The notes: generated from the sequence alone by a model not told the origin. Positions 45,211-46,380 are shown, counted from the stretch's first letter. The stretch: 64,000 bases of DNA from Candidatus Thorarchaeota archaeon (GCA_021498125.1 JAIZWL010000003.1:60457-124456); one strand, 5' to 3'. Made by a program: numbers and translations.

Positions 45211-46317
45211 ATGGCAGAAGACGAGTTTCTTGGAGCCAAGCCGATTGTCATTGACAATGGTACTGGCTTAAGCAAGAACGGGTACGCGGGTGAGGACCAG
45301 CCACGAAGCGTCTGGCCGACGCTCATTGGCTATCCACGTTACGAGAGCATCATGACTGATGTTGATCACTACACACGTGACTACTACATCGGTGAAGAGG
45401 CTATCAATCTACGTGGTGTGCTACGTCTGGTCTACCCCATCTCACATGGTGTCATCGACGACTGGGACGCCATTGAGAAAATCTGGAGCTACACATTCTA
45501 CAATGACCTTAAGGTCGATCCGAGCGAGAGCCCTGTTCTCCTCACGGAGGCACCTTACAACCCCCGAGAGAACCGAGAACGCATGGCCTCAGTTATGTTC
45601 GAGACCTTTGGTGTACCAGCAGTGTATGTTGCCACTCAGGCAGTCATGTCACTCTATGCATCAGGTAGAACCACTGGTCTGGTCGTGGACTCAGGTGACG
45701 GTGTTACTCACATCGTACCAATCTACGAGGGCTTTGTAATTACTCATGCTGTCCGTCGTATTGACCTCGCAGGCCGCGATATCACCGAGTACCTCCGAAG
45801 ACTGCTCCGGCAGAGAGGCTACTCATTTGTTAGTGGTGCTGAGAAAGAGATCGTCCGTGACATCAAGGAGAAACTGTGTTACGTCGCTAAAGACCCCGAG
45901 CAGGAACGCATTGTTGCCGACTCTGCTGGTGTTGACAAGCAGTACATGCTCCCTGACGGTGAAACAATCACTGTAGGTGCCGAGCGATTCCAAGCTCCCG
46001 AGCTGTTCTTCAATCCGAGCGCTATTGGTCTTGACACAATCCCACTTGACGAGCACATCGTTGAGTCGATCAAGGCTTGTGATGTTGACCTGCGCCGTGA
46101 CCTCTACGCAAACATCGTACTCTCAGGTGGTTCAACCATGTTCGATGGTCTCAAGGAACGACTCCTTAACGAGATCTCAGAACTTGTACCCGAGAATGTC
46201 GAAGTCCGTATCATCGCACCTCCCGAGCGTCAGTACTCAGTCTGGATCGGTGGAAGCATCGTCGCCTCCCTGAAGACCTTCCAGAATGCTGTTTGGGGTT
46301 TCCCGGCAGCCTGGTAA
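45211..46317 (+). CDS. Actin (Asgard/eukaryote-type), reading frame terminated at a TAA 21 codons before the conserved C-terminus
   Basis: Very high similarity to eukaryotic actin (DNGTGLSKNGYAGEDQPRSVWPTLIGYPRY, LTEAPYNPRENRERM, SGDGVTHIVPIYEGF, YSFVSGAEKEIVRDIKEKLCYVA, IAPPERQYSVWIGGSI). See finding on the C-terminal interruption. Confidence 0.9.
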   Translation: MAEDEFLGAKPIVIDNGTGLSKNGYAGEDQPRSVWPTLIGYPRYESIMTDVDHYTRDYYIGEEAINLRGVLRLVYPISHGVIDDWDAIEKIWSYTFYNDLKVDPSESPVLLTEAPYNPRENRERMASVMFETFGVPAVYVATQAVMSLYASGRTTGLVVDSGDGVTHIVPIYEGFVITHAVRRIDLAGRDITEYLRRLLRQRGYSFVSGAEKEIVRDIKEKLCYVAKDPEQERIVADSAGVDKQYMLPDGETITVGAERFQAPELFFNPSAIGLDTIPLDEHIVESIKACDVDLRRDLYANIVLSGGSTMFDGLKERLLNEISELVPENVEVRIIAPPERQYSVWIGGSIVASLKTFQNAVWGFPAAW

Positions 46318-46380
46318 ATGTGGGTTTCCAGGAAGGAGTTCGAAGAGGCGGGCCCAGAAGTCATCCATCGCTGTATCTAA
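46318..46380 (+). other. In-frame continuation encoding actin C-terminal peptide MWVSRKEFEEAGPEVIHRCI, separated from the actin ORF by TAA
   Basis: Aligns with eukaryotic actin C-terminus [21 protein letters not shown]; same reading frame as 45211-46317. Confidence 0.7.

Follow-up and report, generated by a model that had tools for sequence, protein, structure and literature searches.

A probable bulge-helix-bulge intron in the coding sequence of a Thorarchaeota actin gene

Does a gene whose reading frame closes before its last 20 codons still encode a complete actin, and if so, by what route? The question is raised by a 64,000-nt stretch of DNA from a Candidatus Thorarchaeota archaeon (GCA_021498125.1, JAIZWL010000003.1:60457-124456), which is called the window hereafter; its closest relatives are Thorarchaeota MAGs. 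An actin ORF on the + strand (45211-46317) encodes 368 aa, ends ...KTFQNAVWGFPAAW-TAA, and is deposited at NCBI as MCF2137440.1, an 'actin family protein' of truncated length. Its match to the Pfam Actin profile (E=6e-122) aligns residues 10-359 with profile positions 5-389 of 410, and because the match stops at position 389, the C-terminal part of the protein is absent from the 368-aa ORF. Beyond the TAA, the same frame runs on (ATG TGG GTT ...) and encodes MWVSRKEFEEAGPEVIHRCI-TAA (46318-46380). An actin frame interrupted by an in-frame stop, with the C-terminus following in the same frame, is thus what the sequence contains, just as the initial annotation described. Intron-less Thorarchaeota actins, by comparison, have 379 aa and read ...KTFQKMWVSRKEFEEAGPEVIHRCI.

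Four explanations had been offered for this arrangement: an assembly or sequencing artefact, a pseudogenising duplication, a split actin with a separately expressed C-peptide, and programmed bypass of the insert. Most likely, none of them fits. The insert is very probably an archaeal bulge-helix-bulge (BHB) intron within the actin coding sequence, an RNA-level interruption absent from that list, which would be removed by a ligase and EndA, the tRNA-splicing endonuclease whose target in archaea is the BHB motif; we infer its splicing from the conserved fold of the message and the protein that predicted removal restores.

Results

A 30-nt insert in the actin reading frame

The extent of the insert was defined by comparison with the contig of an intron-less relative (L081), whose gene order matches that of the window and whose identity to it is 88.8% over 21 kb. 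Global alignment of the two contains eight indels, namely five of 1 nt and one each of 2, 3, and 30 nt. The sole indel longer than 3 nt is the 30-nt block, which lies inside actin (46286-46315). Because this gap is a single clean one, the insert measures 30 nt rather than the 33 nt first assigned to it, and the residue at the junction is Lys. In the coordinates used here, the intron, UGCUGUUUGGGGUUUCCCGGCAGCCUGGUA, occupies 46287-46316 on the + strand (equivalently 46286-46315). Exon 1 (45211-46286, + strand) comprises codons 1-358 and the AA that opens the Lys359 codon, and exon 2 (46317-46380, + strand) supplies the third nucleotide of Lys359, followed by MWVSRKEFEEAGPEVIHRCI and the stop codon TAA at 46378-46380. 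The exon 1 protein is 100% identical to that of an intron-less 379-aa actin (P0002), encoded on L081, and the exon 2 protein is the same or nearly the same across all carriers and intron-less relatives. At the 72 intron-less sites in relatives' loci, the junction residue is Lys without exception (65 AAG, 7 AAA). The sequence across the junction is accordingly TFQKMWVS, in place of the TFQ(Q)MW, with Asn or Gln, of the initial annotation.

The intron sequence was found nowhere else in the window or in other loci, and a repeated mobile element was rejected on the grounds of this confinement to the actin site. AATG direct repeats are spaced 32 nt apart, not 30. A search by eye for spliceosomal GT...AG borders gave a single pair within the insert; at 19 nt, its removal would break the reading frame, and this candidate was also rejected. 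Group I and group II introns are far longer than 30 nt, and no Rfam family matches at the insert site, so a group I or II intron and a known RNA family were rejected as well.

The message is predicted to fold into a relaxed bulge-helix-bulge

As RNA, the region reads ...ACCUU-CCAG-AAU-(GCUGUUUGGGGUUUCCCGGCAGC)-CUGG-UAA-AUGUGGGUUU..., with the part in parentheses forming a hairpin. The structure was predicted from unconstrained folds, comprising the minimum free energy (MFE) fold of a 73-nt segment, RNAalifold on the five carriers described below, and a separate MFE fold for each carrier. A central helix, H, pairs the last CCAG of exon 1 (46281-46284) with CUGG near the intron 3′ end (46311-46314), as seen in both the folds and the alignment. 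The inner hairpin, h′ (GCUGUU.GGG GUUU CCC GGCAGC, 46288-46310), stacks directly on H and has 8-9 bp in the carrier folds. Between the exon strand of H and h′ lies the bulge B1 (AAU, 46285-46287; AAA in L022), which is an unpaired 3 nt in all five MFE folds and has its predicted 5′ cleavage at 46286|46287. The opposite bulge, B2 (UAA, 46315-46317), has its predicted 3′ cleavage at 46316|46317 and is also the in-frame stop of the unspliced message. The 4-bp H, the 3-nt B1, and the stacked h′ were recovered by RNAalifold and by all five single-sequence MFE folds; H forms all four pairs in four carriers and three of four in L022, where an A.G mismatch occurs. All of these elements, and the outer helix below, are on the + strand.

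The 3′ half of the motif is looser. On the B2 side, 6-7 nt are unpaired in the folds (UAAAUGU; 46315-46321 in the window) before a 6-bp outer helix, h, in which AGACCU (46274-46279) pairs with GGGUUU (46322-46327) in RNAalifold and in single-sequence MFE folds. This helix is separated from H by one unpaired U (46280), and a strict 3-nt B2 would require a lone U46280-A46318 pair. In the strict form of the motif (hBHBh′), each 3-nt bulge is bordered by H and by a helix, h or h′, of no fewer than 2 bp. The longer unpaired stretch, together with the offset of the outer helix by one U, makes the 3′ half relaxed. The actin motif is therefore modeled as a relaxed one with one canonical half (HBh′-like), a class that is reported to be accepted by (alpha-beta)2 EndA with the L1 loop (PMC5829648). 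The outer helix has no covariation support because both of its strands are coding and nearly invariant.

Covariation argues for the remainder of the structure. In the five-carrier alignment, 95.4% of cells are paired, versus 28-51% when the 3′ partners are slid by 1-3 columns, and 6 of 13 pairs have two-sided changes; these values come from five distinct sequences that are related by descent. None of 500 shuffles matched the observed percentage paired, the number of two-sided pairs, or the covariation score, and 4 of 500 matched the number of further pair types. Within h′, 95.6% of cells are paired across nine aligned pairs, four of which have two-sided changes. In H, both end pairs (two of four) are changed on both sides in L033, where CCAG/CUGG becomes UCAA/UUGA. 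The exon side of this change is synonymous (TTC CAG to TTT CAA) and is matched at the intron 3′ end (CUGG to UUGA), so that all four pairs of H are kept.

Whether such a motif could arise by chance was judged from the window itself. A loose BHB scan (a 4-bp H with h′ ≥6 bp and a length of 12-150) gave approximately 300 matches on each strand, and dinucleotide shuffles gave as many. Since the counts are equal, the motif alone is no evidence, and only its position and conservation are. BHBs of actin-site quality occur at approximately 3e-5 per (position, length) pair in the window; FQKMW would be restored by just two of these pairs, one of which is the site of the actin motif. The presence of a BHB at the protein-restoring position in five diverged genomes is not due to chance. 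When the BHB matches were filtered for ORF joining, the actin site was recovered along with 42 unspecific candidates, mostly gene ends beside a following gene. The window in this way holds 43 BHB-like sites whose removal would extend an ORF (for example, at + 28600, + 31739, and - 1497).

Predicted removal of the insert would restore actin

BHB motifs are cleaved between the second and third bulge residues (PMC2738675). When this rule is applied, 46287-46316 is removed and the junction reads TTC CAG AAA ATG TGG, encoding FQKMW, in all five carriers. A cut one nucleotide later would yield Asn in four of the five. The canonical cuts yield FQKMW, so the structure alone predicts the correct protein.

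Among the carriers, the 20 codons past the in-frame stop differ by 103 synonymous and 11 nonsynonymous nucleotide changes. All 11 of the latter represent one A-to-Q replacement, which is found in intron-less relatives too. Judged by this pattern of substitution, exon 2 is under purifying selection, which means that it is translated. Its selection and its homologous protein bear out the view, taken from the outset, that these codons are the true actin C-terminus, and the insert must be skipped somehow.

Downstream of exon 2, an 11-bp hairpin followed by TTTTTTGTTTT is located at 46397-46444 on the + strand (fold z = -3.95). This hairpin and T-tract may mark the likely transcript end, 3′ of the second stop and not of the first; the placement is only suggestive, since a strict terminator scan gave no match here. 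Nothing like this element was found 3′ of the first stop. Farther along, a two-domain gelsolin gene lies on the - strand (48947-49543), 2.6 kb downstream of actin. A DNA methylase gene (46485-47504) and an ORF of 478 aa for which Pfam gave no match (47505-48941) are situated between the two, and the gene order from actin to gelsolin (45211-49543) is common to the relative L081 (10001-14302).

A proposed splicing pathway

The following pathway would account for a complete actin. In the folded pre-mRNA, the CCAG that ends the paired part of exon 1 would pair with CUGG at the intron 3′ end in a 4-bp helix, placing the 3-nt bulges AAU and UAA on opposite strands, with the intron hairpin on one side and the exon-exon helix on the other. 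EndA would cut past the second nucleotide of each bulge, at 46286|46287 and 46316|46317, and the exons would be joined by an RNA ligase, presumably RtcB. The 30-nt intron would be freed, probably as a circle with the junction ...GCCUGGUA|UGCUGUUU.... Translation of the mature mRNA (...TTC CAG AAA ATG TGG...) would then give the normal 379-aa actin ending in TFQKMWVSRKEFEEAGPEVIHRCI. A ribosome on unspliced RNA would instead stop at the UAA of B2 and release a 368-aa actin without the C-terminal 20 residues.

The two RNAs and their products would be readily told apart. The predicted spliced junction is GACCTTCCAGAAAATGTGGGTTTCC, versus CCAGAATGCTGTTTGG and CCTGGTAAATGTGG for unspliced RNA. Tryptic digestion of the full-length product would give MWVSR after TFQK, and the unspliced product would have the C-terminal peptide TFQNAVWGFPAAW.

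Machinery of the appropriate kind is on record for this group. Asgard archaea, in a sample that included a Thorarchaeota genome, are reported to have a broad-specificity (alpha-beta)2 EndA with an L1 loop linked to relaxed-BHB cleavage (PMC5829648), and some Asgard lineages carry introns in >90% of tRNA genes (PMC11291895). The window itself encodes a type-II tRNA-Ser(GGA) on the - strand (57715-57830; Rfam, 47.2 bits) with an intron of approximately 32 nt at position 37/38. ARAGORN reported no tRNA in the window and thus missed this Rfam-found gene. By eye, the BHB of the tRNA also looks relaxed, with a 3-bp CUG/CAG central helix. An archaeal RNase P RNA (RF00373) is present on the - strand as well (62516-62859; 178.9 bits, full-length match).

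Related inserts in other Thorarchaeota

Four of 66 Thorarchaeota-like species representatives (L006, L022, L025, and L033) have a 30-nt insert at the same codon, with internal sequence unlike that of the window, and their equivalent ORFs would be truncated likewise. The likeness of TGGGGTTTCC to TGGGTTTCC, read initially as a quasi-duplication, is peculiar to the window; the other four carriers have unrelated sequence there. A similar hairpin is found in four of the carriers, and that of the window has diverged apically with its ends, length, and site kept. A further copy, identical to the L025 intron, is carried by a JGI metagenome contig (L100). This contig was the one genuine actin carrier among 62 matches of a metagenome pattern scan, the others being chance matches or members of an unrelated gene family. 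A profile search with the intron-encoded tails yielded no further carriers; its matches were all short ORFs, for the most part the final exons of actin genes from eukaryotes. No hidden 368-aa members were found in 90% protein clusters.

In a neighbor-joining tree of actin coding sequences, which is a tree of this gene and not of the species, the carriers are scattered, each with a close intron-less sister. Actin coding sequence identity is 97.4% between the window and L081, 94.6% between L006 and L021, and 96.6% between L033 and L039. This scatter fits either a single origin with repeated precise losses afterward or a spread from species to species through recombination. For cbf5 introns, a patchy distribution has been read as lineage-specific loss (PMC2738675).

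Two observations on other actin-like genes were made in the course of these searches. The contig of L047 (JAUVHR010000038.1) carries a pair of actin-like genes, at about 3001-4140 and at about 5100-6250, which lie about 2.1 kb apart. The second reads ...STFFDKWVTRKEFEEAGPEVIHRCI; its final 17 residues match the first copy exactly, and translation of the 3′ flank gives a nearly identical sequence. The pair could have arisen through gene conversion or a recent duplication, or it could be a repeat in the assembly. In addition, two short ORFs from eukaryotic contigs (P0139 and P0147) are actin fragments that read through the exon end directly after TFQQ. Their spliceosomal intron and the Thorarchaeota BHB intron differ in position by 1 nt, a proximity that is most likely a coincidence because actin has many known intron positions.

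Alternative explanations

The window is derived from a MAG and has close relatives without the insert, as would be expected of an assembly or sequencing artefact, for instance a chimeric join or a collapsed repeat within the metagenome bin. However, an independent Logan assembly of run SRR15988961 is 100% identical across the insert, which to all practical purposes rules out an assembly artefact. Diverged inserts also occupy this site in one JGI contig and in four other MAGs, which come from different studies; these, and the lack of this sequence elsewhere in the window or in other loci, likewise leave an artefact with next to no probability. Comparison with sister genomes had been suggested as a test, in which contiguous sequence would indicate an artefact. 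Contiguous sisters do exist (L081, L021, and L039), but that conclusion does not follow from them, because intron-less sisters and other carriers are both found. Alternatively, the 368-aa actin may be the real product, either of a recently disabled gene or as a functional short actin, possibly with a 20-aa C-peptide started at ATG 46318. The deposited 368-aa annotation agrees with this, as does the placement of an ATG directly after the stop. Yet this ATG encodes the universally conserved Met of TFQxMW, and the exon 2 protein has been kept over five species despite 103 synonymous-type differences, a record of purifying selection that is at odds with a pseudogene. An insert kept at one site, with a fixed length of 30 nt and compensated pairing, is unexpected for a disabling insertion, and a split actin would leave that conserved RNA structure unexplained. 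With the likely transcript end placed 3′ of exon 2 also speaking against it, we consider it very unlikely that the 368-aa actin is the real product.

Translational recoding would act on unspliced mRNA, with a ribosome hopping the stop as its peptidyl-tRNA-Trp moves from a TGG to the TGG of MW. Four carriers have a TGG directly before the stop and an in-frame TGG 9 nt downstream (TGG TAA ATG TGG). In the window alone, TGG 46294 also matches TGG 46321 in frame, and these two were the take-off and landing sites originally suggested for a bypass. A hairpin beside the take-off site recalls T4 gene 60. Against this, the 46294/46321 pair is confined to the window, the take-off TGG being absent from the other carriers. 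L033 also lacks a TGG ahead of its stop, and none of its matched in-frame codons would carry a hop into exon 2; no matched in-frame take-off and landing pair of the T4 gene 60 type is common to all five carriers. Any hop would insert 8-10 nonconserved residues (such as NAVWGFPAA, NVAAIPVAA, or KAAPISVAA) where all other actins are invariant. Neither the covariation between exon 1 and the insert 3′ end nor the exact Lys obtained from canonical BHB cuts would be explained by bypass, and we regard recoding as highly improbable. Removal could also occur at the RNA level through an agent other than EndA, such as a different nuclease acting with a ligase or an element that cleaves itself. The 3′ bulge departs from the canonical form, and EndA is assigned here from the fold, which leaves some room for such an agent. 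The insert is, however, too short for a group I or II intron and has no Rfam match, and its structure and cuts fit the BHB rule precisely, so that an agent of this kind has very little likelihood.

Discussion

An EndA-processed BHB intron in actin would matter in several respects. Actin is a hallmark eukaryote-like gene, and its interruption would mean that the prokaryotes closest to eukaryotes have protein genes dependent on splicing. The intron would offer a short and well-defined substrate for the study of mRNA splicing in Asgard archaea and its competition with translation, and the carriers with close intron-less sisters form a natural system for intron gain and loss. Gene finders are blind to BHB introns in coding sequences; the truncated MCF2137440.1 and its counterparts in four MAGs would be annotation errors of this sort that mislead structural and phylogenetic work on Asgard actins.

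The intron-encoded tail is closed by an in-frame stop in all five carriers. Incomplete or regulated splicing might yield two actins, one of 379 aa and one of 368 aa that lacks the C-terminal 20 residues and has an intron-encoded tail, although we think it unlikely that cells use both. If true, two actin forms would amount to alternative splicing by an endonuclease, acting on a cytoskeletal gene of an organism closely related to eukaryotes. As a weaker extension of this idea, endonuclease-type introns might be commoner in Asgard protein-coding genes than annotated.

Several known systems resemble the actin intron in part. IRE1-dependent splicing of HAC1 and XBP1 is a nonspliceosomal reaction of an endonuclease and a ligase (RtcB in animals) that is regulated by stress. 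Like the actin intron, the introns concerned are short, lie near the 3′ end of the coding sequence, and change the C-terminus; unlike it, they depend on an unrelated endonuclease and a twin stem-loop motif. BHB introns in archaeal tRNA and rRNA have the same motif and the same presumed enzymes as the actin intron (PMC11291895, PMC5829648), and noncanonical tRNA introns are very abundant in Asgard lineages (PMC11291895, PMC5829648). The size of the actin intron is close to that of the approximately 32-nt intron in the tRNA-Ser of the window (57715-57830). In contrast to tRNA and rRNA, the actin host RNA is translated, so that splicing and ribosomes would be in competition, and codons limit the sequence that the exon part of the motif can take.

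Among archaeal mRNAs, BHB introns have been described in the cbf5 coding sequence of Crenarchaeota and in the 5′UTR of HVO_1309 of Haloferax (PMC2738675, PMC7714728), and a paper of 2020 named cbf5 as the only other example (PMC7714728). The HVO_1309 mRNA of Haloferax volcanii is a substrate of the tRNA-splicing endonuclease, as is predicted here for actin; its host enzyme is a euryarchaeal one of strict specificity, and because the intron is in an untranslated leader, the protein is not interrupted, unlike actin (PMC7714728). The closest parallel is cbf5 of Desulfurococcales and Sulfolobales, a pseudouridine synthase gene whose coding-sequence intron is also short, some of these introns being 36 nt (Watanabe 2002; Yokobori 2009, PMC2738675). 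Both genes have an 'unconventional' BHB-like structure in place of a strict one, predicted intron borders between the second and third bulge nucleotides, a host from a group with hetero-oligomeric EndA, a patchy distribution among related species, and a history of misprediction by gene finders. They differ in gene and lineage, with actin in Asgard archaea/Thorarchaeota and cbf5 in Crenarchaeota, and in that splicing of cbf5 was demonstrated by cDNA and in vitro cleavage, whereas splicing of actin is predicted from fold, conservation, and product. Because the actin intron is a multiple of 3 nt and ends in an in-frame stop, translation of unspliced RNA would produce a protein truncated at a defined point with no frameshift, unlike cbf5. 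No report of a BHB intron in an Asgard or Thorarchaeota actin was found in the searchable literature, which covers subscription journals thinly, and an earlier report is possible. The actin intron most likely shares its mechanism class with that of cbf5 and extends this class to another gene and another phylum; it would be the second coding-sequence case in the searchable literature.
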